A stretch of DNA of 64,000 nucleotides from a virus (IMGVR_UViG_3300025858_000011); one strand, 5' to 3'. Shown: positions 8,159 through 32,479, counted from the first letter of the stretch. Translations and numbers: made by a program. Notes: a model not told the origin generated them from the sequence alone.

Positions 8159-8957
8159 CTTACTACAATACCTTTCAGTATCCATTTCTGTTGTAGTCTG
8201 GACTATATCATCACCTACAGTTTTATCTGTTTAGGGCTCGGCGTATAGTCTCTGAGGGGTCATTTCGGACTTCCCTGCGGATTATCAATATATCCTATAA
8301 ATTTTTACTTGATAGTCATTCCATAATTATGTATATTATGGTAGACAGATAGTATTATAGGCTTTACGAGTTTCCCGCATATAGCCAAGTACAAATTAGT
8401 TATTTCTAATTAATCGCTCAGTGTAATGAAGATAGATAAAAATGTTCTATATGAGTTATATACATTGCAGAAGCTAACTCCTTCGAAAATAGCTAGGAAA
8501 TTTAAATGCAATCATAAAACCATTCGTAGTTGGTTAAAAAAATATAATATTGCTATGCGTAGCCCTGCAGAATACAATTATTTAGCACGTCCGACACATA
8601 TTAGCCCCACTGATTTACTATTATTCAGTGACATTAGCATTGCTGGGCACATCGCCTATTTGTGTGAGGGATGGCATACTAATAAAACTACCCAATTATA
8701 TTTTTGTAATACTGATCCAATATTAATCAACTTATTCTGTAAAATGTTATTTACAATTTATAGTATTAATCATATTAGATACATCATTATTTCTCCAACT
8801 TTAGAACTATCAACAAAATTTAAAACTCTTTATCCTTCTGCAAAGATTTATATAGAACCGCTTAGAAAAAATCCTATTATACGAATCTATGCTGGAGGAA
8901 AAACATTAGCAAAAGAGTTTATAAATAATGCTTATAAAATATCCTCTTCATTAAGTT
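8159..8957 (-). other. group I self-splicing intron in tRNA-Leu(TAG), inserted after anticodon position 34
   Basis: P ATGCGGGAAACT, Q AATCCGCAGG, R TCAGAGACTATACG, S GATATAGTCCAGAC on minus reading; 5' exon ends in U, intron ends GTAAG (omega-G). Confidence 0.7.
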
Positions 8958-10320: not shown

Positions 10321-10900
10321 TAATGGATGCCTTGTTGTGACTTGGATTACTATAATCATGATAGACACTTATTGAGAGCGACTCAACGCCTGCCTATTTT
10401 AGATTGGTGATTCCGTAATCCTAAACGTCCCCGCTTCCACGGGTTTCGCTTGATAATACCGTATGGCGACAGTTTGTAACATTGGGCCAACCTTGCCGGA
10501 ATGCCCGGTTACAATTATCAATCATTTGCGTGACCCCTTGCGCTGTAGCAAGATTTAACAATTCACAAGGGATACCCTTTAGGTATTCTCAAATTCACAC
10601 CTTCTTTTGCACATAGTTTACTATGTGAGTTTTAAATAAGTAATGTCACGGGAGACCGAGCATAAGGATTACGATTCCTTGCTAGTCTACCCTTCGATTT
10701 AGGTGCTACTCGAAGTAGCCACCGCGACATTGTTTATTATATAAATAACACATGTGGGAGCGAACCCTTAGTACGGTGAACTCTTTGGGTGTGGTTGCCC
10801 AAAAAGCGCATACTGCTAAGTAGGTAATATCCCCATGAAGGATATTTACCATATTCCACAATCTTGCCCACTTACGCTATAAATTTTTAAGTGATCAAAT

Positions 10901-19682: not shown

Positions 19683-19969
19683 GCCCTCCCCGGGACTCGG
19701 ACCCGGAACCTACGGATTCAAGATTATGTTAGTTTCCTAACGTCTTGGACTTTCTCTTTACCGTATCATATCTCTATGACTTAGGTAGTAGCCGTCAAGT
19801 CTCTACACTTCCCATCAATATTTATATTGACGGTTTAGCTCGGGATTGCCATAAAGTAATGCTACTTTTTAGGTTTCCCCGAATTTGACTACTTACACTT
19901 ATAAAATTTCTTTTATAAGGCCCAAATTTTTTAGAAGTCCGTTGCTCTGTCCAATTGAGCTAAGAGGGC
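19683..19969 (-). tRNA. tRNA-Arg(TCT) interrupted by 213-nt group I intron (exons 19933..19969 and 19683..19719)
   Basis: 5' exon GCCCTCT-TA-GCTCAATTGGACAGAGC-A-ACGGA-CTTCT; 3' exon AA-TCCGT-AGGTT-CCGGGTCCGAGTCCCGG-GGAGGGC-G; 5' exon ends U, intron ends G. Confidence 0.7.
19720..19932 (-). other. group I intron, subgroup IC3-like, inserted after anticodon position 36
   Basis: AGTAGTCAAATTCGGGGAAACCTAAAAAGT, TTATGGCAATCCCGAGCT and GGGAAGTGTAGAGACTTGACGGCTACTACCTAAGTCATAG closely match the Azoarcus pre-tRNA-Ile intron (GUGUCAAAUUCGGCGAAACCUAAGCG, UAUGGCAACGCCGAGCC, GAAGGUGUAGAGACUAGACGGCACCCACCUAAGGCA). Confidence 0.75.
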
Positions 19970-20033: not shown

Positions 20034-21059
20034 TTATATTTCAAATGCCTTTGCTTTAACCCATTTTCTATTTGTTAATAGCCATTCTTTTCGAACAACT
20101 ACTGACGCATAAACGGGATTATTATTCAAAAGCATACATTGTCCTATAAGCTGTTCATTACGAAGACTTACTACCTGAACGGAATCTACAGTCTCATCAG
20201 TTTCAGTAATAAGCGGATCATCAATCAATTCACTGACGATCTTTCTTGCCAAAAGCATCTCTTCAGCTTTTGCTTTATCATAATTTGCAAGAACTTCATC
20301 GATGGTTGACACATTTGCATCGATATGTACGTAGGTTTTATAGTCAACAGTTTTTTTGACATCGATGTCTTTTGACAATCGAATTGCTGCCGTACCATAA
20401 CAGGTGCGGATCAACGCGTCAAATACTTCCCGAAAGAATTCTTCATTAGGGCATCTTTCGATGCCAAATACCACACCATTGATTAAAATGATAGCGCCAA
20501 CCTGACCCTTTACAGGTTCAAATTGAACTACGAATTCATCCAATTCTTTCTGAAATTTCTCGTAGAAGTATATCAAATGCCCCTCACTACGTGAAATTCC
20601 TGATTCATTATTAAATCTGGTGATATAAGGCCATAGCTTAGAGTAAGACTCTTTTCCTTTTAATGCAGTAGCATCTGCACGAAGTGCCCATGGTAAAATT
20701 GCTAATGACTTTTTACCACGCGACAAATGACCGCCCTGTGTTTGTTGAATACAGGCGCAATCATTATACTGCTTTGTTTTACCCTTTGTAACATATCCCA
20801 TGCGCATCATCGCATGATCCTGGGCACTTTCTTTGGTCATATAAGATGCATGTGCCGGTATAATGATGCTTTTATCAGTTACATTGATAAACGTAAGATT
20901 ACCATATGCTGAGTTTGTTACCTCGGCATTAGTAGATGATACAAAGTCTTCACATTGAAGTCCTTTGTCTAATAACAATGGAATCATCGTGAAAACTCCT
21001 ACGTGCTGCATATTTCCAACTACGCATCCTCGTAGTATATCTCTCGTATTAGTAAGCAT
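20034..21059 (-). CDS. hypothetical protein (341 aa), partner of vWA protein
   Basis: ORF abutting the vWA gene (2-nt gap). Confidence 0.55.
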   Translation of the reverse strand: MLTNTRDILRGCVVGNMQHVGVFTMIPLLLDKGLQCEDFVSSTNAEVTNSAYGNLTFINVTDKSIIIPAHASYMTKESAQDHAMMRMGYVTKGKTKQYNDCACIQQTQGGHLSRGKKSLAILPWALRADATALKGKESYSKLWPYITRFNNESGISRSEGHLIYFYEKFQKELDEFVVQFEPVKGQVGAIILINGVVFGIERCPNEEFFREVFDALIRTCYGTAAIRLSKDIDVKKTVDYKTYVHIDANVSTIDEVLANYDKAKAEEMLLARKIVSELIDDPLITETDETVDSVQVVSLRNEQLIGQCMLLNNNPVYASVVVRKEWLLTNRKWVKAKAFEI

Positions 21060-21060
21060 A

Positions 21061-22578
21061 TCAGTTTCCTCCCACTAATTTAAGTGTAGAGTTTTCTAAC
21101 ATGCCGATGCCCATTACAGGATCTGTGATAAATATACTTCGTAACATCGCTACTCCAACCTTAGTGATATCCATTACAGGAACTACGAGTACTGAGTCAT
21201 TCTCTGTAAATTTTCTGACTCCTGATGCTTCAGCGGCCATTACAGACGGAAGATAAATGATAGGAACTGTCCATCCCACTTTCCTTAATAAGGATAATAA
21301 TTCATCAAATCTTCCCGCAATGACATTTTCGTATCCGTCAGACACCACGAATATACAGTTTACATCTTTTTTTGCTAAATTCCGTAAACCCTCTGCCAGA
21401 TTAGTACCATCTTGCGGAAAAGGAAGAGTTTTAATAGTTTTTCCACCAATTCGTTCGACATGGACTTCTTCAGCATGCATTAATGTTTTCATTGTTGCGT
21501 AGGCGATTGCCATCGGTCGCATCGGTTGAGTTACATGACCACTCATGCTCTGAGAAGCATCAAAGATGATACCGATGTTCTTATACTTAAAAGGAAACTG
21601 TTCGTAAGCTTTTTTAGCCTTCTCATCAATCACTTGATTAATCTCTACAGTGGTTCCTTTTTCATAAATATAGATCGCAAGATCATTTAGACTCATAGCT
21701 CTCGGATTAAATTCGATGACCTTTGTAACTCCTACTTTTTTCTGAGTAGTCTGAGTTATCATTTTTTCCTTATCAGTCATTGCTTCTTCTGATAATTCAA
21801 AAATCCTGGCTACGGGAATTTCGCGATGATACTTACTTCGAATGCCTTCTAAGGTTGTTCTTGGCAATCCTTTTCCCTTGGAAAAATCAACTTTGCAATC
21901 TTCATACTGCTGAAGAAGCGTAGTCTTAAATGGGCCACTATTTCCTAATATAAATGAAACACATTCTAACTGAGTTTCACTTATATCTGGCCCTAGAAAG
22001 TTTGCAATCATCTGACGTTCTCGTAATATCCGTATTTCAGTAGGAGCAGAACTCTTTGCTAATATCGCTTTTGTGATAGAAGCTCTACGTTCTCCGAGCA
22101 CGTGTTTCAATGCCGTTCGAAGTTTATTACGGTATTTCACTGCTTCAAATGGCAAGTGCTCATTTGATAGAATTGACGTTAATATCAGCTTTCTAGTGCG
22201 AGTGTTGTTAACGCGTGCTTTAGCCAATTTTACAAATAATTTAAAACGTCTAGTAGCGGGCAAATGACTTACGATGTGCTGTAGGCCGATGTATTCTTGT
22301 TCAGCGGTTAATATTCCACTACTAAAGGAAGTACCCAATAGTTTTTCGACGACTGTCTGTCGACCATTGTCTTGTACAGATGGTAATAGTGATGCTAAAA
22401 GATATAGTCCACGATCTATTGCTAATATTTGATCATGGGCAGACTTCTTTACAGCATCCTGCTCCCCTTCTGTATTTACTGCAGTTGCTTTTCCAGTTGA
22501 TGTAACCAACGAATCCAAGTATGTCGGCATCGCAGTTTTCAGCAACATAAGCGAAGCCTGTGAAAGTTGTTTTTCCAC
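21061..22578 (-). CDS. vWA domain protein (505 aa)
   Basis: MIDAS IFDASQSMSG; later VVSDGYEN. Confidence 0.6.
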   Translation of the reverse strand: MEKQLSQASLMLLKTAMPTYLDSLVTSTGKATAVNTEGEQDAVKKSAHDQILAIDRGLYLLASLLPSVQDNGRQTVVEKLLGTSFSSGILTAEQEYIGLQHIVSHLPATRRFKLFVKLAKARVNNTRTRKLILTSILSNEHLPFEAVKYRNKLRTALKHVLGERRASITKAILAKSSAPTEIRILRERQMIANFLGPDISETQLECVSFILGNSGPFKTTLLQQYEDCKVDFSKGKGLPRTTLEGIRSKYHREIPVARIFELSEEAMTDKEKMITQTTQKKVGVTKVIEFNPRAMSLNDLAIYIYEKGTTVEINQVIDEKAKKAYEQFPFKYKNIGIIFDASQSMSGHVTQPMRPMAIAYATMKTLMHAEEVHVERIGGKTIKTLPFPQDGTNLAEGLRNLAKKDVNCIFVVSDGYENVIAGRFDELLSLLRKVGWTVPIIYLPSVMAAEASGVRKFTENDSVLVVPVMDITKVGVAMLRSIFITDPVMGIGMLENSTLKLVGGN

Positions 22579-22790: not shown

Positions 22791-22920
22791 TCAGTTCTTC
22801 AAAAAATAAACATTAGGAGTAGGACTGAGGTTGTCTTGTTTATTTTTCATTCGAAATATCTGAAACAGCGTCAAGTCTCCTAATACAATAAAATGGTGGT
22901 AAGTTTATAGTTATGTTTTT

Positions 22921-22990
22921 CGAGCGGGATTTGAACCCGCCACCGATTGATTATAAGTCAATTGCTCTACCAAATGAGCTATTCTGAAAT
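22921..22990 (-). pseudogene. tRNA-like gene with anticodon loop CTTATAA (Ile-TAT-like) but unpaired acceptor
   Basis: good D (GCTCATTTGGTAGAGC), anticodon (ATTGA/TCAAT) and T (GCGGGTTCAAATCCCGC) arms; acceptor TTCAGAA vs TCGAAAA does not pair. Confidence 0.3.
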
Positions 22991-23010
22991 AACTGTAAGT
23001 CCACCGATGG

Positions 23011-23090
23011 TTACGACAAAAGGATTTGAACCTCTAAATTACGGTACCCGGGAGGATTACCGTCGCGTCTGCCAATTCCGCCATATCGTA
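23011..23090 (-). tRNA. tRNA-like gene with aberrant 13-nt anticodon-loop region (anticodon undetermined), CCA encoded
   Basis: acceptor TACGATA/TGTCGTA, D GCGGAATTGGCAGACGC, T AGAGGTTCAAATCCTTT, 3' ACCA; anticodon arm ACGGT-AATCCTCCCGGGT-ACCGT. Confidence 0.35.
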
Positions 23091-23121
23091 ATAAATAGGC
23101 AATAATTAATAAGTAAATTTT

Positions 23122-23196
23122 GTTTAGAAACAGGACTTGAACCTGCAATTCATTGATCCGCAATCAATTGTCTATACCAAATTAGACGATTCTGAA
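23122..23196 (-). tRNA. tRNA-Arg(GCG) candidate
   Basis: acceptor TTCAGAA/TTCTAAA (one C-A mismatch), D GTCTAATTTGGTATAGAC, anticodon stem ATTGA/TCAAT loop TTGCGGA, T GCAGGTTCAAGTCCTGT. Confidence 0.45.
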
Positions 23197-23219
23197 ATTA
23201 CTTAGTAGTTTGCCTTTTG

Positions 23220-23292
23220 TAGCGGGGGAGGGATTCGAACCCTCGCATAGCCTGGTTATGAGCCAAGTGACTTGCCACTTGTCGACCCCGCA
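23220..23292 (-). tRNA. tRNA-Met(CAT) (elongator or Ile-lysidine type)
   Basis: acceptor TGCGGGG/CCCCGCT (1-72 mismatch), anticodon stem CTTGG/CCAGG loop CTCATAA, T GAGGGTTCGAATCCCTC. Confidence 0.6.
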
Positions 23293-23298
23293 ATCAAA

Positions 23299-23685
23299 TT
23301 ACTTTTCGATCTCATAGATAGCAGCTATTGCTGCATCAACGATTTTATTTATGGCCATTATCTTGGCCATTTTTACATCTGTCTCAGTGTCTCTTGTTCT
23401 TGTTGCCCTCGAACTAAATCTTGCCTCTTCAACCTGATCAGGAATCTTTACGAGCATTGTTCTTGCCCGAAGATATGACCGAAATAATGCAAATTTAAGA
23501 TTTTGCACTTCGATCTCCCTTATCGCCGATTTTAATGAATCCTGAACAACTTCTACTACGGGAGTCATCCCTTTAGAGTTTACAAGATCTTCAAATGCTG
23601 CCTGTGCGGTATTTAATTCTTGCGTAGGGGCCTGTGCACATGCCAATAAAAGACATATGACAAAAAGAATTGATAACTTACGCAT
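23299..23685 (-). CDS. lipoprotein (128 aa)
   Basis: signal peptide + lipobox LLACAQ. Confidence 0.55.
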   Translation of the reverse strand: MRKLSILFVICLLLACAQAPTQELNTAQAAFEDLVNSKGMTPVVEVVQDSLKSAIREIEVQNLKFALFRSYLRARTMLVKIPDQVEEARFSSRATRTRDTETDVKMAKIMAINKIVDAAIAAIYEIEK

Positions 23686-23832
23686 ATCATCCTTTCAATT
23701 TTGATGACGAAGGCAATAAAAACAAAGCTAAACAAGTAGGGTTTGTTAGAATCATAATATGAATTATAAAAATGCCTTCGTCATAAATCTTATACCAATT
23801 AATATATGCAATGCTTTTTTAAAAAGCAAGTA

Positions 23833-24050
23833 AAAAATAATAGATAGTTGTCCCTTGCGTTAGTGGGATCCCCGTAGCTGCAAACTCGGAGCAAATACCT
23901 TGGAAAGATCCGGAGGGTTTTGTTTGCAGATATCCCTCCTCATTTTTTCCATGAACATGGCGAAATACGCGAGGCCTTAAGTCCTCATTGATTTAAGTGT
24001 GAAGCTTAGCTTCTTCCTCTTAAACCTTCTCTGCTGCAACTATCTATTAA
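23833..24050. repeat. ~220-bp element bounded by 13-bp inverted repeats (TAATAGATAGTTG / CAACTATCTATTA)
   Basis: perfect IR 190 bp apart; internal sequence moderately GC-rich, no ORF >35 aa; preceded at 24030-24085 by a second copy of the promoter-like block seen upstream of gene 24588..25355. Confidence 0.4.
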
Positions 24051-24350
24051 TAAAAAATTAGACTACCGGCCAGGCGAACTGACTCCTTACGCCTATACTA
24101 ACATAAGTAAGATGTATTGATTGATAAATAAGCAATAGGCATAGGTCTACTTATCCTTACAATATCATTCCCAGCAATATTCGCAATATTAAAACCTAAC
24201 TAGTTAGATACTAATAATTAATTATGCTTCTAGTAATCTAATATAACTTTGGGCCGCCGAACATATCCTTGATCGCACGGCCAAATCAGATAATATGATC
24301 AAATTCATAGTCTGGAAGTATGTATTACAAATGTCACTCGCCGCCCTGAT

Positions 24351-24445
24351 TAATGCTAAATTTGCTGCTCTACCACTGAGCTACTCCGCCATAATAAACA
24401 ATAACATTAGAGGCGGAGGGTGGGATTGGACCACCGACACACAAA
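24351..24445 (-). tRNA. circularly permuted tRNA-like gene (3' half upstream of 5' half)
   Basis: minus reading: TTTGT-GTGTC-GGTGGTCCAATCCCACC-CTCCGCC, 21-nt spacer, then GGCGGAG-TA-GCTCAGTGGTAGAGC-A-GCAAA...; acceptor halves are perfectly complementary (7/7). Confidence 0.4.
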
Positions 24446-24587
24446 GAAAGAAAGAACTCGATGACATGTGATACTGTTACTAAAACTGTTTGGGCAAGAT
24501 GCTTTATATAAGACTGAGCTTAATATATGTAAGGTTGTAAAGCCTTACTTTGTAATGCTGATACTTTCCCAAAAGTTTAGTTACAAT

Positions 24588-25355
24588 TTATTGATTGTAA
24601 AAAAGAAACTTTAATAGCTCGAAGCCAAATTTAACATTGGTGGCTTCGTTACTATTTGCACGACTACGTGCGTCCGCGATGGCAGAGAGCATTTTATCTA
24701 CTCTGGACATCATATCGGCCTTTACTGCTGGAGAAATCTTTCCTGATACAATACGTCTTGAAAATTCTCCAACCTGTGTTTTCTTTACAGCCTCTCGCAC
24801 TTGTGCGGGATGCTTATCCGTCGCCGGAGCTAATACTACCGGAACAGTCTCTTCAACATATCGGTACGTAGGAGCCTCTTGAGTTACTGAGGTGCCATCA
24901 CGTTCATCGTCATTCTCTTTCCAAGCCTTAGCCATGTCCAGAGTTGGAAGATTATTTACGATATGCTCTCTGAGTTCTCTTACGGACTTCTCCAATTGGA
25001 GCAGTTCCTGCGAAGAAAATTCTCCGAAGTCACGATCTCCAATTAAGAGATTTGCCTTTAACCCGCCAGAAGCATTTGAAGCTTCTCGAGATAATTGAAC
25101 ATTAATAGAATCAGCAAGATAAGGAAGAATGAAATCCAATTTTTCTGTTACAGTTGTTATCAGTTCTTTTCCCTCATCCGGCTGCTTGTCCCCGGCCTCA
25201 TCGAAGGGAGTATAAGTCCGAAGATATCCTTCGAACATCTCGCCCTTTTGGAAAGTCTTTGCGGCTTCAGCTAGGAGTTTATTTCCTTGCTGTACTTTGT
25301 CTCCCATCACTGCAAGCAGTTGATGGAATTGCCCTGCTTTTGTTTTAGTAAGCAT
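24588..25355 (-). CDS. hypothetical protein (255 aa), GC-rich
   Basis: ORF; GAGGA SD; codon usage richer in GC than neighbours. Confidence 0.55.
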   Translation of the reverse strand: MLTKTKAGQFHQLLAVMGDKVQQGNKLLAEAAKTFQKGEMFEGYLRTYTPFDEAGDKQPDEGKELITTVTEKLDFILPYLADSINVQLSREASNASGGLKANLLIGDRDFGEFSSQELLQLEKSVRELREHIVNNLPTLDMAKAWKENDDERDGTSVTQEAPTYRYVEETVPVVLAPATDKHPAQVREAVKKTQVGEFSRRIVSGKISPAVKADMMSRVDKMLSAIADARSRANSNEATNVKFGFELLKFLFYNQ

Positions 25356-25379
25356 TTATTTTCCTGGTTATAATATAAA

Positions 25380-26500
25380 AAATGAATAGTTGCCCAGGCG
25401 AACTGGGTGTCCTGATACACGTTTTTTATGGACATAAACTGCTGTCAGTTGACTTCGATGATCTTCGTGTAATAGTATCTAGGTAGCTCTGACAATCTAA
25501 GTCTATGCGAAAGTTCGCGTCATTGGAGAATACTTGTCTAGAATTTCCTCTCCGACTTGTTCTGCTCCAGCTATTCATTAATTGAGCACATTGTGCGCTA
25601 ATATTCTTAAAGTAAAAACAAAACAACTCAGGGTTGATTACTCAGCTCAGAGATTGCTTTGTTTAGAAAGCCTGAGACTACAGCTTTCAATACGCACCTC
25701 TACTCCCTTATTGTTTAGGAGCTTATCCACTACGACCGCTGTTAACGTATCGTAGTAGTGCGCGATGCCGGATGGGTTACCATCCAATTTCGATGTGGTC
25801 TGCTCGGCGATACTTCGTTCCCCCTGGGTTCGACCCCAAGAATCGGACCTTGCGAGTCCGGGAGAAATACCTACCAAAGACGATGGCTTCGCAAGCCATA
25901 GCCTTCCACTTTCCAATGGAGTGGACTTGGGCAACTTGTAAACCACACGCGGAAGCGTTTTTGCTTTTAATTGCATTCAATTTTTGGCATGTTAGCCGGA
26001 TTCAGGAATCGCACCTGATAATTTAATTACCATTATTCTCATTTTTAAGCCAGGAGCTTCCGTGAGGGACCATTTCCTTTTGAGAAACAGCATCCCTCCC
26101 TGGCCTATGGCAGCATCTCTGCTAACCGGTAATTTACTCCGCGCTCGCTACGCGTTTCTGTAAATCACTAGAGCACGCTCTTGACAATCGCTTGTCTCGA
26201 ACTAAGCTCTCTGATCTTGTCTCCCTAGCTAACTGTTAGACGTGTGCCCTCTAGTTCTAAGTAGAGGTATAGACTCGGCGGTCGCCCCTGTCTACGATGG
26301 CAATCACACACCAGCTTACTAAGTTCGCCCATTTAATAATAGGCACCTCTTTGTAGAGGCGAAAGATCATTGCTTGGACGGACTACGTACCACGGCAAGC
26401 CGCAATTCATAGCGCAAATTTACGTGAGATACGTAAGGATTGCTTTCCCGTATTACTACGGATTATCTTCCCAAGCGAAAAGCGTACATAGTACGCTACC
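25380..26500. other. 1.1-kb GC-rich ORF-poor segment (candidate structured RNA or foreign insert)
   Basis: ~50% GC versus ~35% around it; only short mutually overlapping ORFs; abundant local complementarity. Confidence 0.35.
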
Positions 26501-26506
26501 TTTTTC

Positions 26507-26953
26507 TTATACCAAGAAATTTTTTATTTGTTTAGATAGATCCTCGAGAGAAAAAACTACTTTAATATATGGACGTCTAAGTGATGTTTGTATTAATACA
26601 TCACTACGTCTTGTATATTCAGGATCTACGCCAATAAATAACATTTTAGGTTTATACATTGACCAGGCACCCAGCTCGTATAATACAATTGGGCATAGGG
26701 TTTCCTTAGGAAACCAGAATGATATGGCAGCTGCTTCATTTAAATGATAAAATTCCCACTCGATTTGCGCACGGGCGGCATTGGGATCGCTGATGGGAAA
26801 ATTCTTTCTTCGTGGATTAACAAGTATAATATCTTCATCTTTTAGAAGATCTACTAGTTCCGCTTGCCAATCGGGACATCCAGTTATCCCTCCAGCGAGG
26901 AATATATGATCTCCATGGCCGAGATAATTATTTGGAGCTTCAATGTATGTCAT
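26507..26953 (-). CDS. nucleoside 2-deoxyribosyltransferase-like protein
   Basis: IFLAGGITGCPDW...VNP...EWEF...LYELGAW pattern of Nuc_deoxyri_tr2-type Rossmann-like hydrolases. Confidence 0.5.
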   Translation of the reverse strand: MTYIEAPNNYLGHGDHIFLAGGITGCPDWQAELVDLLKDEDIILVNPRRKNFPISDPNAARAQIEWEFYHLNEAAAISFWFPKETLCPIVLYELGAWSMYKPKMLFIGVDPEYTRRSDVLIQTSLRRPYIKVVFSLEDLSKQIKNFLV

Positions 26954-27114
26954 TTATATTCTTGGTTAAATTAATATAAAAAAATACCGCCCCTATGTTC
27001 ATTCATAGGTCTACTAAATCTCCAAGCATGACCATGGAGACGCGTAGAAAAGGACAGCGATGGCCCATGTCCGTCATCAGTAGTCCGGCGGCAAGCTTAT
27101 TATAAAGTGTGAAC

Positions 27115-27158
27115 ACCCGGGAGACAGGATGTGAACTCCCGGGTGGTCGTTTTCGTCT
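27115..27158 (+). terminator. intrinsic terminator (plus)
   Basis: ACCCGGGAG..CTCCCGGGT hairpin followed by CGTTTTCGTCT. Confidence 0.5.
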
Positions 27159-27177
27159 GACATCCAGCCAGGCGTTG

Positions 27178-27250
27178 TCTGGGTGGCAGGGGACGATCCT
27201 GCGACCTCCTGGTCCCAAACCAGGCGCGCTACCAGCTGCGCTACACCCAG
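27178..27250 (-). tRNA. tRNA-Pro(TGG), GC-rich
   Basis: acceptor CTGGGTG/CACCCAG (C1-G72, typical of Pro), D GCGCAGCTGGTAGCGC, anticodon stem CCTGG/CCAGG loop TTTGGGA, T GCAGGATCGTCCCCTGC. Confidence 0.65.
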
Positions 27251-29628: not shown

Positions 29629-30138
29629 TTACACCACCTCCTGCATGAGTGCGTCGCACTCAAGTTTATACTTCCATATTGTTAATGACACGTCAAGTGC
29701 TGCCTGTAAATCTTTTACCAGGAATACACTATTATGTGTAGTTCCTAATAGATGTTTTATCAGCATTTCGCGTGCTAATATTGACGCTTTTGCTAGCCCA
29801 AGGTCGGCTTCAATTAAGGATTTTGATACATCCGGATCGATAAAGACTATTAACTTTCGAAATGAGTCTTTCATTCTTCCGATGGCCATCGCGGCTTCCA
29901 TTAATGATATAAACGCGTAGGTTTCATCAGTAATTGCAAAAATAACTATGTCATCATTAGCAAGATGACATATTTCTTTATCTGAGTCCGCGGGTGTCCA
30001 CATTCCATCAGCTACCTGAGGATTAAAAAAAGGAATACCTCTAACAGTATACTGATCTACGAACGCTTGTCGCCAGATGGACTTTCCACATGTACCGAAA
30101 AGTCCGATGAAGTTACGGTCTTGTTGGTAAATCTCCAA
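29629..30138 (-). CDS. hypothetical protein, possibly nucleoside deoxyribosyltransferase-like
   Basis: 169 aa; IGLFGTCGKSIWR...IVIFAITDE weak resemblance to the Rossmann-like Ndt/DUF4062 fold. Confidence 0.3.
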   Translation of the reverse strand: MEIYQQDRNFIGLFGTCGKSIWRQAFVDQYTVRGIPFFNPQVADGMWTPADSDKEICHLANDDIVIFAITDETYAFISLMEAAMAIGRMKDSFRKLIVFIDPDVSKSLIEADLGLAKASILAREMLIKHLLGTTHNSVFLVKDLQAALDVSLTIWKYKLECDALMQEVV

Positions 30139-30563: not shown

Positions 30564-31508
30564 TTACTTGGTCAGCTTAAATCCCCTAAGTGGGCCTTCG
30601 CCTGTTGAAAGCACGATATTCGTGTTCTCATCAATGGTCTCTTCAAGAGTTCTCAAGCTCCGCATGAACGAATAAAATTCGGGGTATTGTCCGTAGGCGC
30701 TACTATAAATAGCCGCCGCTTCGCCCTCGCCCTTCGCATGAAACTCCTTAGCTTGTCTATAGGCCTCAGAACGAATGATTGCAATTTCGCGATCTTTCTT
30801 TCCAACGATTTCCATAGCCAGGCCGTTGCCCTTTGATGTATACAACTCTGCAACCCGGTTCTGATCGGAAATCATCCGATCATATACTCCCTGCAGGTTG
30901 TTTTTGGTGTACATCAATGTACGAAAATTCAGGTTTGCAAATTCAATACCTAGCGAGTCCGTGCTGGGTTTCGTAAGTTTCATGATCTGTACCAGCATCG
31001 AATCCCTGCCAACCCGTACCTTCGCAGAATCCGCTGAGGCAACTGAGATAATAACCGAGTCCGACTCTGATACACTGGCAATCAACATGACCCGGTTCGA
31101 AGTCCGTACGGCCTCATTCAGCATATTTGCCGAAATAAGGTCATTTACTTTGCCGTCGAAGATGTCATCGAGCCTGGAGAAACACTGTTCAGTATTACCT
31201 ACGGCATTCTTGAACAGCAGGGGATTTACAATCTTCCACCGTCCAAAAACCGAGATTGCCACATACTTGCGATCCAGCGTCGGAAGCTCCATCGGAGCAC
31301 CGTCCCACTCGTACCAACGGTTATCGTAGGTGTAACGATGCTCGATAATCGGCGTCTTAAACGCGACACCGGGGACTTTATTGATATTAACGGGATCACC
31401 CATGCGAGTGACTACGCTCTGTGTCACCATGTCCTGGACGTAGATTGAATCACAAACGATAACCAGGGCAATCATACACAGAACAGCCAGAATTATTTGT
31501 TTCTTCAT
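30564..31508 (-). CDS. hflC: SPFH/band-7 protein HflC-like
   Basis: N-terminal TM, SPFH core, YTKNNLQGVYDRMISDQ; paired with upstream HflK-like gene. Confidence 0.7.
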   Translation of the reverse strand: MKKQIILAVLCMIALVIVCDSIYVQDMVTQSVVTRMGDPVNINKVPGVAFKTPIIEHRYTYDNRWYEWDGAPMELPTLDRKYVAISVFGRWKIVNPLLFKNAVGNTEQCFSRLDDIFDGKVNDLISANMLNEAVRTSNRVMLIASVSESDSVIISVASADSAKVRVGRDSMLVQIMKLTKPSTDSLGIEFANLNFRTLMYTKNNLQGVYDRMISDQNRVAELYTSKGNGLAMEIVGKKDREIAIIRSEAYRQAKEFHAKGEGEAAAIYSSAYGQYPEFYSFMRSLRTLEETIDENTNIVLSTGEGPLRGFKLTK

Positions 31509-32479
31509 TGTTTGGCCTCGGGGTTCAGGTTCATGAATGGCAGAACATTGCGGACAGCATTGTCGACGAAGGTCTTATGGGCAGTTTTGTCCAATGCCCT
31601 TACGATGGCCTCGTTATACAGTCGCTCTTCAGTAGTTTTGGCATTCTTTGCATGTTCCCGCGCCAGGGCGAGGAATTCCGCTACGTCACCACGTGCATTG
31701 TTCACACGTTCGGCGTAAAAACCGTTAGCAAGTTCTACTGTCTGCAGAGCTTTGCCCTGTTCCAGCGGAACCTCCCGGTTATAAAGCTGCCTAGCCTTGT
31801 TGATCGTCTCGTCCATGCCTGATCGGGCATTGGTAACGTTTTCGTAAGATGTCTTGACTTCCTTAGGAGGTTGTGCCTCCTGAAGTTCAGTCATTACAAT
31901 GCCGAGTCCGGTGCCAAAATCACGTAGGCGCTTATCTGTTTCGATACGCGCCTGGATCGCGATGTCAGTCCTGGCGAGGTTAATAACCTCATCACCAGAA
32001 TGATCGCCTACGACTTTGCGCATCTCAGCGATTGACACATCGTCCAGTGTTTTCAAGGGGTCGATGACATTGTATGCATACTGATACGGATTAACAATCT
32101 GATAGTGATGCACCCATTGAACCCATACTACGGAAAGATCTCCCGTAAGCATAAGTGCCTCTTTGGCGAAATCGCCCTCAGCATATGTTGACTTCACATC
32201 TGCCTTAATTGTTCGAAACCCATACTCCGCCTTAAAGCGAGTCTTGACCGGAATATCCTTTACGGTTTCAACCCCTACGGGAAGTTTGAAATGAAGACCT
32301 GGACCAACGGTCCGATCGTACTTCCCAAGCGTCTCCACCAGGCCGACAGAATCAGATGATACCGTGTAAGGAGTCGTGAGTGCAAAAATGCATATCACGA
32401 TCAGTACTGCGATGCCGACGTATTTTTTTGGCATGTTACCCTTTCTTTCTTTGTTTTGTGTGACTTTTAACATCATCAA
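31505..32479 (-). CDS. hflK: SPFH/band-7 protein HflK-like
   Basis: 324 aa; N-terminal TM, SPFH domain, long C-terminal coiled coil; stop overlaps the hflC start. Confidence 0.7.
   Translation of the reverse strand: MMMLKVTQNKERKGNMPKKYVGIAVLIVICIFALTTPYTVSSDSVGLVETLGKYDRTVGPGLHFKLPVGVETVKDIPVKTRFKAEYGFRTIKADVKSTYAEGDFAKEALMLTGDLSVVWVQWVHHYQIVNPYQYAYNVIDPLKTLDDVSIAEMRKVVGDHSGDEVINLARTDIAIQARIETDKRLRDFGTGLGIVMTELQEAQPPKEVKTSYENVTNARSGMDETINKARQLYNREVPLEQGKALQTVELANGFYAERVNNARGDVAEFLALAREHAKNAKTTEERLYNEAIVRALDKTAHKTFVDNAVRNVLPFMNLNPEAKQ

Follow-up and report, generated by a model that had tools for sequence, protein, structure and literature searches.

A permuted tRNA-like element downstream of a DUF7873 gene in a viral genome is most probably the core of a YrlA-class Y RNA

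A stretch of 64,000 nucleotides from the virus IMGVR_UViG_3300025858_000011 (the window, i.e. the whole stretch of DNA analysed) carries at positions 24351 to 24445 on the minus strand the two halves of a tRNA in reversed order, which were described in an initial annotation as a candidate circularly permuted tRNA gene. The element is located in a tRNA-rich region, in a cassette with the order DUF7873 gene, element, three tRNA genes, Ro60-like gene and ARPP-1 gene. Its architecture, the constraints of the tRNA L-shape, its conservation and its gene neighbours were established computationally. The element is most probably the tRNA-like core of a non-coding Y RNA of the YrlA class, approximately 250 nt long, rather than a tRNA gene. 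All window features described below are encoded on the minus strand.

Read from 24445 to 24361, the element consists of a tRNA 3' half, a 21-nt spacer and a tRNA 5' half; a start at 24351 takes in 10 nt of the 3' junction beyond the end of the element at 24361. The parts listed in the initial annotation were all found letter by letter. The 3' strand of an anticodon-like stem (UUUGU, 24441 to 24445), which pairs with GCAAA at 24365–24361, is followed by the equivalent of a variable loop (GUGUC, 24436 to 24440), in which C24436 corresponds to N48 and forms the Levitt pair with G24376 (N15). Next are the T arm (GGUGG-UCCAAUC-CCACC, 24419 to 24435) and the 3' strand of the acceptor stem (CUCCGCC, 24412 to 24418), which, as claimed initially, is complementary at 7 of 7 positions (24390–24384) to the 5' strand GGCGGAG (24384 to 24390). 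An AU-rich loop of 21 nt (24391 to 24411), starting with U-CUA and ending with UAU before G+1, closes the acceptor stem. The 5' half continues with U8 and A9 (UA, 24383–24382), the D arm GCUC-AGUGGUA-GAGC (24381–24367), A26 (A 24366) and the 5' strand of the anticodon-like stem (GCAAA, 24365–24361). The window copy keeps U8, A14, G15:C48, G18G19, U54 and A58, and U55 is changed to C.

The tRNA-like core is embedded in further structured sequence. The junction motif UUUAGCAUUAA (24350 to 24360), matching a family pattern YUAAG/UUAG-RCU-NA that was seen by eye and partly quantified, lines up with the uAuG junction of the YrlA consensus. In the minimum free energy fold the flanks close the module by a long bulged helix, in which AUGUCAUCG (24467–24459) is paired with CGA-G-UGACAU (24340–24331). 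As placed by minimum free energy and duplex folds and by the layout of the YrlA consensus, this outer closing helix extends over a 5' strand GUAU..AUGUCAUCG (24456 to 24474) and a 3' strand CGA-G-UGACAU..AUAC (24322 to 24340) with a bulged G at 24337. A conserved upstream block, AUCUUGCCCAAACAGUUUUAG (24480 to 24500, 65 nt 5' of the T arm), is a probable 5' part of the same RNA, and a conserved hairpin approximately 80 nt downstream, GGCCGUGCG..AAGGAUAU..CGGCGGCC (24252 to 24282), is its probable 3' end. Since helix-forming flanks, upstream block and downstream hairpin are all conserved beyond the tRNA-like core, the predicted RNA probably covers around 250 nt, about 24510–24250.

In its natural order the element gave no tRNA call with ARAGORN and remained below threshold with the Rfam tRNA model. 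With relaxed thresholds, the best Rfam match over the element was YrlA (RF02553; 29.7 bits, E = 1e-4 in a search of 311 nt), and the alignment covered model positions 20–89, arm for arm. The RNAs of this class are defined by the order of the module, by covariation of the Levitt pair, by a GNCGAA(N)G motif near the 5' end and by a distance of <4 kb on the same strand from a Ro60 (TROVE) gene, and they were reported in 254 bacteria and 22 phages (PMC4201824). At the helix-loop junction of the window RNA, UCGAGU (24461–24456) occupies the position of GNCGAA(N)G, the proposed Ro60 contact of YrlA, as judged by eye against the consensus; a relative (L018 in the numbering of the loci sampled) has CCGAAA. 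Covariance modelling, which the initial annotation had proposed as a check, bore out the permuted structure: an independent model (R1), built from 80 family members with the window left out, matched the element over its full length (model positions 1–97) with 60.8 bits and E 5.7e-16. The E-values of the local YrlA match and of the independent model place the element far beyond chance.

The relatives were recovered via the gene directly upstream of the RNA, which encodes a protein of the DUF7873 family (PF25283). Overall, relatives are spread over at least 576 species-representative genomes and 190 viral contigs. A total of 156 usable DUF7873 loci from species-representative genomes and IMG/VR were sampled, which belong to Actinomycetota, Bacteroidota, Planctomycetota, Chloroflexota, other phyla and many phages. 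A structural scanner demanded a T stem of 5 bp whose loop reads U[UC]C[AG]A, an acceptor stem of seven positions (at least six paired) closed by a loop of 3–330 nt, U8 and N9, and a 4-bp D stem with an A..GG loop, so that pairing of the T, acceptor and D stems in its hits is true by construction. The module was identified within 600 nt downstream of DUF7873 on the same strand in 115/156 loci, compared to only 16 hits elsewhere on both strands, and was typically located 60–400 nt 3' of the DUF7873 stop codon. Approximately 30 of the 41 loci missed by the scanner (counted from the listing) were recovered by R1, often with two tandem copies; taken together, the module is found beside DUF7873 in approximately 145 of 156 loci (~93%). 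This type of RNA is tied to the uncharacterised DUF7873 family far more widely than to Ro60. Exceptions to the order are two metagenome-assembled genomes of Planctomycetota, in which the module is located upstream of DUF7873 on the same strand (L074, 4604–4871; L105, 1719–1981), and one of Acidimicrobiia with the module on the opposite strand (L090, 4557–4821, minus). No R1 match at E ≤ 1e-6 was obtained in the Raineyaceae loci L027–L032. Two tandem modules 3' of one DUF7873 gene are present in many loci, for example L155 (5838–5921 and 5983–6085), L175, L102, L151, L036, L117 and L148; the first copy is usually the lower-scoring one, an arrangement that recalls YrlA/YrlB pairs.

The comparison with related genomes suggested in the initial annotation also supported the permuted architecture. 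The window element is identical in several independent contigs, and the same permuted module was found just downstream of diverged DUF7873 homologues with every stem compensated: L016 (60% DUF7873 identity, acceptor loop of 185 nt), L018 (54%, 76 nt), L020 (50%, 186 nt) and L021 (41%, 33 nt). In an alignment of 81 sequences, 22 of 22 pairs were changed on both sides (574 cells versus 192 in shuffles), among them all pairs of the T stem (5/5), the acceptor stem (7/7) and the D stem (4/4). The covariation score was 0.83 versus 0.24, reached by 0 of 500 shuffles, with slid controls between 0.10 and 0.24. Two features not demanded by the scanner follow the same pattern. The Levitt pair N15:N48 is G:C in 58 and A:U in 58 of the 116 family modules without exception (N48:N15 in alignment A3: 49 C:G, 32 U:A, 0 unpaired). 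The anticodon-like stem is fully paired in 69/116 modules, with 52 distinct sequences, compared to 12.4 in a between-sequence control. Conservation extends to the flanks as well. At 65–71 nt upstream of the T arm, Actinobacteria, Bacteroidota and phages have a block UCAGAUUCUCGCUCCAG..UUCAG, related to window 24500–24480, whose strict pattern was found in 35/116 modules versus 31/544 control windows. L016, L018 and L020 form equivalent closing helices from different sequences and carry a hairpin like that at 24252–24282 followed by a U run, which is missing from the window copy.

The T loop of the window element, UCCAAUC, is indeed atypical, as noted initially: its C55 is the sole instance among the 116 modules and would preclude pseudouridine-55 in this copy. 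The exact T-arm 17-mer gave four matches in IMG/VR, all of them non-homologous and one of them in an ordinary tRNA-Phe that shares this T loop. The colinear phage tRNA-Phe(GAA) of L002 (12165–12260) has a variable loop and T arm (GUGUC GGUGG UCCAAUC CCACC) identical to those of the window element, so that C55 T loops occur in apparently normal phage tRNAs. A megablast search of 23300–27200 against 50,697 GenBank phages gave no match, and a locus search with a single DUF7873 protein yielded one weak locus; the relatives came from an alignment-based search. L018 (10475–10588 and about 10640–10720), L020 (7166–7256) and L016 (8377–8557) have further, weaker units of a permuted T arm and a closed acceptor stem (R1 36–42 bits) in the interval from the Y-like RNA to the Ro-like gene. 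In L018 and L020 an (A/T)T(T/C)ACAG repeat, for which there is no clear equivalent in the window, precedes each of these units and several odd tRNA-like genes.

The acceptor loop varies between 5 and 186 nt across the family. CCA is present at loop positions 2–4 in 38/68 distinct modules with loops >9 nt (1.6% expected from loop composition) and in 12/44 modules with short loops. The first position of this CCA is almost always C across the family, the consensus start being N-CCA, and many loops end with UAU before G+1. Known YrlA-class RNAs are bound by Ro60/Rsr, contain pseudouridine-55 and dihydrouridine and, when provided with a 7-bp acceptor stem, undergo RNase P and CCA processing; in Mycobacterium smegmatis, RNase P cuts YrlA, whose acceptor stem has 7 bp, both in vivo and in vitro, and a CCA tail arises by addition of CA, resulting in a two-piece RNA (PMC4201824). 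By analogy, a maturation of this kind may extend to the DUF7873-linked family, with a predicted RNase P site 5' of G24390 in the window. Opening at the acceptor end, as pictured in the initial annotation, may well take place; most family members encode N-CCA directly after the 3' acceptor strand, which points to loop opening, shown once in M. smegmatis, as the norm in this branch.

The DUF7873 gene of the window (24588 to 25355, 255 amino acids, Pfam 1.4e-56) ends with its stop codon at 24588, and the T arm follows from 24435 on the same strand. The protein gave a confident structure model with no informative fold neighbour and no hint of RNA binding or catalysis, and DUF7873 is not mentioned in the searchable literature. 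On the other side of the RNA, genes for tRNA-Met, tRNA-Arg and tRNA-Ile (22915 to 23292) separate it from an open reading frame of 505 amino acids (21061 to 22578), 1.8 kb downstream of the RNA, which fits the <4 kb same-strand rule of PMC4201824 with the Ro60 identity taken from the predicted fold. The predicted fold is that of a divergent Ro60/Rsr homologue, with a TROVE-like ring of helical repeats and a vWA domain with a MIDAS; a MIDAS motif DxSxS..T..D is present in the C-terminal part of the family consensus. The AF2 model (pLDDT 92.5, pTM 0.89) retrieved as its top four Foldseek matches in the PDB exclusively Ro60 entries (2i91, 9nf8, 9kop and 9l5y, comprising Xenopus Ro60, human Ro60, a TROVE-domain entry and the Ro60 of Thermus phage phiLo), the best one aligning over the whole length at TM 0.51, with E 2.7e-5 and probability 1.0. 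UniRef gives distant homologues the name 'TROVE domain-containing protein'.

Directly 3' of the Ro60-like gene lies a gene encoding an ARPP-1 domain (20034 to 21059, Pfam 8.6e-26). An ARPP-1 or ARPP-2 gene always follows the Ro60-like gene in L006–L020 and L187–L189, in both bacteria and phages, and no such Ro60-like partner is included in the ARPP neighbourhoods listed in PMC9503650. Two bacterial loci, L188 and L189, carry the Ro-like/ARPP pair without DUF7873, and a YrlA-like module is again located just upstream on the same strand. In L188 an array of 13 tRNA genes is followed by the YrlA-like RNA (Rfam YrlA 40.4 bits, R1 52.8 bits) and the Ro-like gene, and the module of L189 (R1 48.1 bits) encodes G-CCA. 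No matches to PHROGs, PADLOC or NCBIfam were obtained for DUF7873, the Ro-like protein, ARPP-1 or an open reading frame of 128 amino acids. Pfam TROVE gave no match among the 30 open reading frames scanned, nor was it among the families seen at least three times in 91 large same-strand open reading frames from 78 DUF7873 loci.

The window is dense in tRNAs and RNA-related genes. ARAGORN identified 21 ordinary tRNA genes between 5533 and 33717, including two tRNA-Ile(UAU) calls and a tRNA-Arg(GCG); those for Ala, Gly, His and Thr are absent in the window. Within the tRNA-rich region, a full-length GOLLD RNA (RF02032, 25669–26107, 165.5 bits, above the gathering score) shares the strand of the DUF7873 gene and lies directly 5' of it. 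The region also holds two group I introns that exceed the Rfam threshold, one just 3' of ARPP-1 (19726–19944, 81.6 bits) and one at 8180–8435 (72 bits). Near the cassette are two neighbouring SPFH/Band_7 genes and two genes resembling nucleoside 2-deoxyribosyltransferases (30564–32479, 26507–26953 and 29629–30138); L006 and L008 have the Band_7 pair in synteny. A weak Rfam match to mt-tmRNA beside tRNA-Pro (26944–27005, 27.5 bits with a gathering score of 65) is probably a tRNA-like fragment or due to chance.

Taken as a Y RNA, the transcript would thread a tRNA-shaped domain backwards, from the anticodon-like 3' strand via variable loop, T arm, closed acceptor stem and D arm to the anticodon-like 5' strand, and its own 5' and 3' flanks would pair as a long bulged helix in place of an anticodon loop. 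The outer helix with UCGAGU at the junction may bind the divergent Ro60-like protein in the way Y RNAs bind Ro60. The tRNA-like domain would be handled by tRNA enzymes: RNase P would cut 5' of G24390, given the full 7-bp acceptor stem, and the 3' side, of which U-C is encoded, would be trimmed and completed to CCA, which would leave a two-piece RNA as for YrlA of M. smegmatis. The tRNA-like domain or the conserved non-tRNA parts might recruit a second protein, for which DUF7873 is a candidate because it is the most constant neighbour of the RNA. In infected cells the particle probably has a role either in the surveillance or decay of RNA or in a tRNA-centred conflict with the host. Y RNAs are known to tether Ro60 to PNPase, and the Ro60-Yrl ribonucleoprotein of phiLo engages the host PNPase (PMC12135203).

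Several results weigh against the assignment to the YrlA class or against Ro60 as partner. The YrlA score of 29.7 bits is below the Rfam gathering threshold of 69, as are the full-length matches of the relatives (33–40 bits), and R1 also scores junctions of tandem tRNA genes, the next-best matches in the window, with up to 36.8 bits. The Ro-binding motif is only approximate (UCGAGU versus GNCGAA), and C55 is present in the window copy, which also has CUA where the family has CCA. The 505-amino-acid protein has no Pfam match and none in the PDB by phmmer or by profile search; that it is a divergent Ro60 rests on the predicted fold with a TM of 0.51. Furthermore, a profile of the Ro-like family found members within 5 kb of DUF7873 only in the clade of the window, apart from one partial match. 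Outside this clade the RNA goes with DUF7873 and has no Ro60 close by, so that its main partner may be a protein other than Ro60.

One alternative is that DUF7873, and not Ro60, is the primary partner and that the RNAs form a separate, widespread class of CCA-encoding tRNA mimics. RNase P would open the mimic to give a two-piece RNA used by DUF7873, with a CCA end that is possibly charged or modified or serves as a decoy for tRNA-targeting enzymes, and the Ro60-like/ARPP pair would be a neighbour in the phage clade of the window only. The frequency of the module downstream of DUF7873 across phyla, the rarity of Ro-like genes and of TROVE in these neighbourhoods, the enriched N-CCA in loops ending in UAU and the 7-bp acceptor stem kept strictly throughout are all in line with this explanation, as is L021, where DUF7873 and RNA are kept together at 41% protein identity without Ro-like/ARPP genes. 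It is opposed by the occurrence of the same RNA type beside Ro-like/ARPP genes lacking DUF7873, by a DUF7873 fold devoid of hints of RNA binding or catalysis and by the absence of a conserved identity element in the acceptor sequences; moreover, Ro60 could be encoded elsewhere in the genomes concerned. The explanation is compatible with a Y RNA and appears rather unlikely, a good deal more probable nevertheless than the idea that the module works in cis only, as a 3' element of the DUF7873 mRNA whose processing by RNase P or RNase Z (tRNA punctuation) sets or stabilises the 3' end. The constant position of the module 60–400 nt after the DUF7873 stop on the same strand would suit such a processing signal, and no convincing promoter was found between DUF7873 gene and RNA in the window. 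That it is improbable is indicated by the same module occurring without DUF7873 upstream of Ro-like genes, by its position upstream of DUF7873 in L074 and L105 and by features beyond the needs of a processing signal, namely doubled modules in tandem, conserved flanks outside the tRNA-like part and a closing helix.

The initial annotation had suggested either a permuted tRNA gene of the kind known from algae and archaea or a rearranged pseudogene. The permuted order and the tRNA-like fold were confirmed: halves with complementary acceptor strands are joined in the described order, and ARAGORN calls a tRNA for the re-joined halves with any 7-nt loop supplied. The amino acid called (Lys, Ile or Leu) is set solely by the arbitrary junction, and a decoding tRNA of the algal or archaeal kind did not hold up. 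The nucleotides past the anticodon-like stem form large internal loops (about 12 x 20 nt) and then a long helix in the window, L016, L018 and L020; since the flanks pair into this long bulged helix, there is no anticodon loop that could be defined. No complete bulge-helix-bulge could be drawn at the element, with three partial, chance-like matches only, and some relatives have acceptor loops of just 5–9 nt. Acceptor, T and anticodon-like stems vary freely among relatives, which is what a structural mimic, but not a single isoacceptor, would be expected to show, and the free variation of the acceptor sequences leaves no amino-acid identity. Bacteria are not known to possess the splicing endonuclease, which counts against this reading as well. 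A genuine permuted gene, in which the precursor ends are ligated, the acceptor end is opened and a decoding tRNA results, is therefore very improbable, even if many relatives encode CCA and the tRNA set of the window lacks Ala, Gly, His and Thr. The slightest probability of all is left to a rearranged pseudogene or a junction of two decayed tandem tRNA genes. The dense tRNA array around the element, its atypical T loop with C55 and the 36.8 bits reached by tandem tRNA junctions with R1 could point in this direction. A pseudogene is excluded by conservation and covariation: neither a 5' half upstream nor a 3' half downstream of the element is present, the element is identical in several independent contigs, and compensatory changes are found in relatives at 41–60% identity of the neighbouring protein and across the approximately 145 loci. 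Two further candidates were rejected. For a two-piece (permuted) transfer-messenger RNA (tmRNA), there is no tag frame and no pseudoknot, C3:G70 is found in place of G3:U70 and the D arm is canonical; ARAGORN detected no tmRNA in the window and Rfam no tmRNA match on the element. For a tRNA split by a group I intron, allowing E-values of up to 10 still gave no intron match close to the element, and no matching halves are present elsewhere.

With the element read as the core of a Y RNA, the wide linkage to DUF7873 leads to a tentative proposal, to which somewhat less than an even chance is given: DUF7873 and a permuted, CCA-encoding tRNA mimic might constitute a widespread two-gene ribonucleoprotein module that is largely independent of Ro60. 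DUF7873 would then either read the tRNA-like domain of Y-type RNAs or use the two-piece mimic opened by RNase P, and in this phage clade the RNA would bridge DUF7873 to the divergent Ro60-ARPP pair. The tRNA-shaped domain of bacterial Y RNAs was described in 2014, with its interactor unknown according to its discoverers (PMC4201824). DUF7873, a family of no known function and with no recognisable fold relative, is a candidate partner for this domain. A Ro60 family that is invisible to Pfam and always paired with the predicted enzyme ARPP widens the search space for Ro60/Y RNA systems, to which large phages rich in tRNAs also belong. When a permuted tRNA gene appears to be present in a bacterium or phage, annotators should first test whether it is a Y-type tRNA mimic.

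Among known systems, the permuted tRNA genes of Cyanidioschyzon merolae, other algae and Thermofilum pendens have the same order with the 3' half first and complementary acceptor halves. These genes yield decoding tRNAs via a circular intermediate that depends on the bulge-helix-bulge, whereas the window element has no anticodon loop, bulge-helix-bulge or conserved identity and forms a module within a larger RNA. The permuted two-piece tmRNA genes of alpha- and betaproteobacteria and cyanobacteria likewise share the order of T arm, 3' acceptor strand with CCA, excised segment and 5' acceptor strand, and weak Rfam beta_tmRNA matches were observed on the tRNA-like part of window relatives. They differ in that the window RNA has a full canonical D arm and an anticodon-like stem, no G3:U70, tag frame or pseudoknots, and a companion other than SmpB.

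The architecture was thought to be new to phages when it was first annotated, a claim that has to be withdrawn, as YrlA-type Y RNAs beside Ro60 had already been reported, from 22 phages in PMC4201824 and from Thermus phage phiLo in PMC12135203. Phage phiLo encodes a Ro60, whose structure is among the top fold matches of the 505-amino-acid protein, with adjacent Yrl1 and Yrl2. The phiLo Yrl RNAs were identified by a CGAA motif and a stem-bulge-stem shape, and the wording 'tRNA-like' or 'YrlA' does not occur in PMC12135203. Literature searches on DUF7873 and on ARPP with TROVE did not return this paper, whose own text was not searched for either term. Phage Y RNAs are already known; the link to DUF7873, the encoded CCA and the divergent Ro60-ARPP pair appear to be undescribed in the searchable literature.

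The closest counterpart is YrlA (RF02553). Common to both are the order of stem, variable loop, T arm, closed acceptor stem, D arm and stem, the covarying Levitt pair, an outer helix in which the 5' and 3' ends pair, with a motif containing CGA at its junction, a Ro60-type gene at <4 kb on the same strand and the occurrence in phages. The window RNA differs by its 29.7 bits relative to the gathering score of 69 and by UCGAGU in place of GNCGAA(N)G. Its Ro60 partner is so divergent that it is missed by Pfam TROVE and is paired with ARPP-1, and a DUF7873 gene is located directly upstream. With the block 65 nt upstream and the 3' hairpin, the window RNA also appears to be longer. YrlA of M. smegmatis has a 7-bp acceptor stem like the window RNA; there, one C is encoded and the CCA end relies on the addition of CA, whereas U-C is encoded in the window and the whole CCA, as N-CCA, in many of its relatives.

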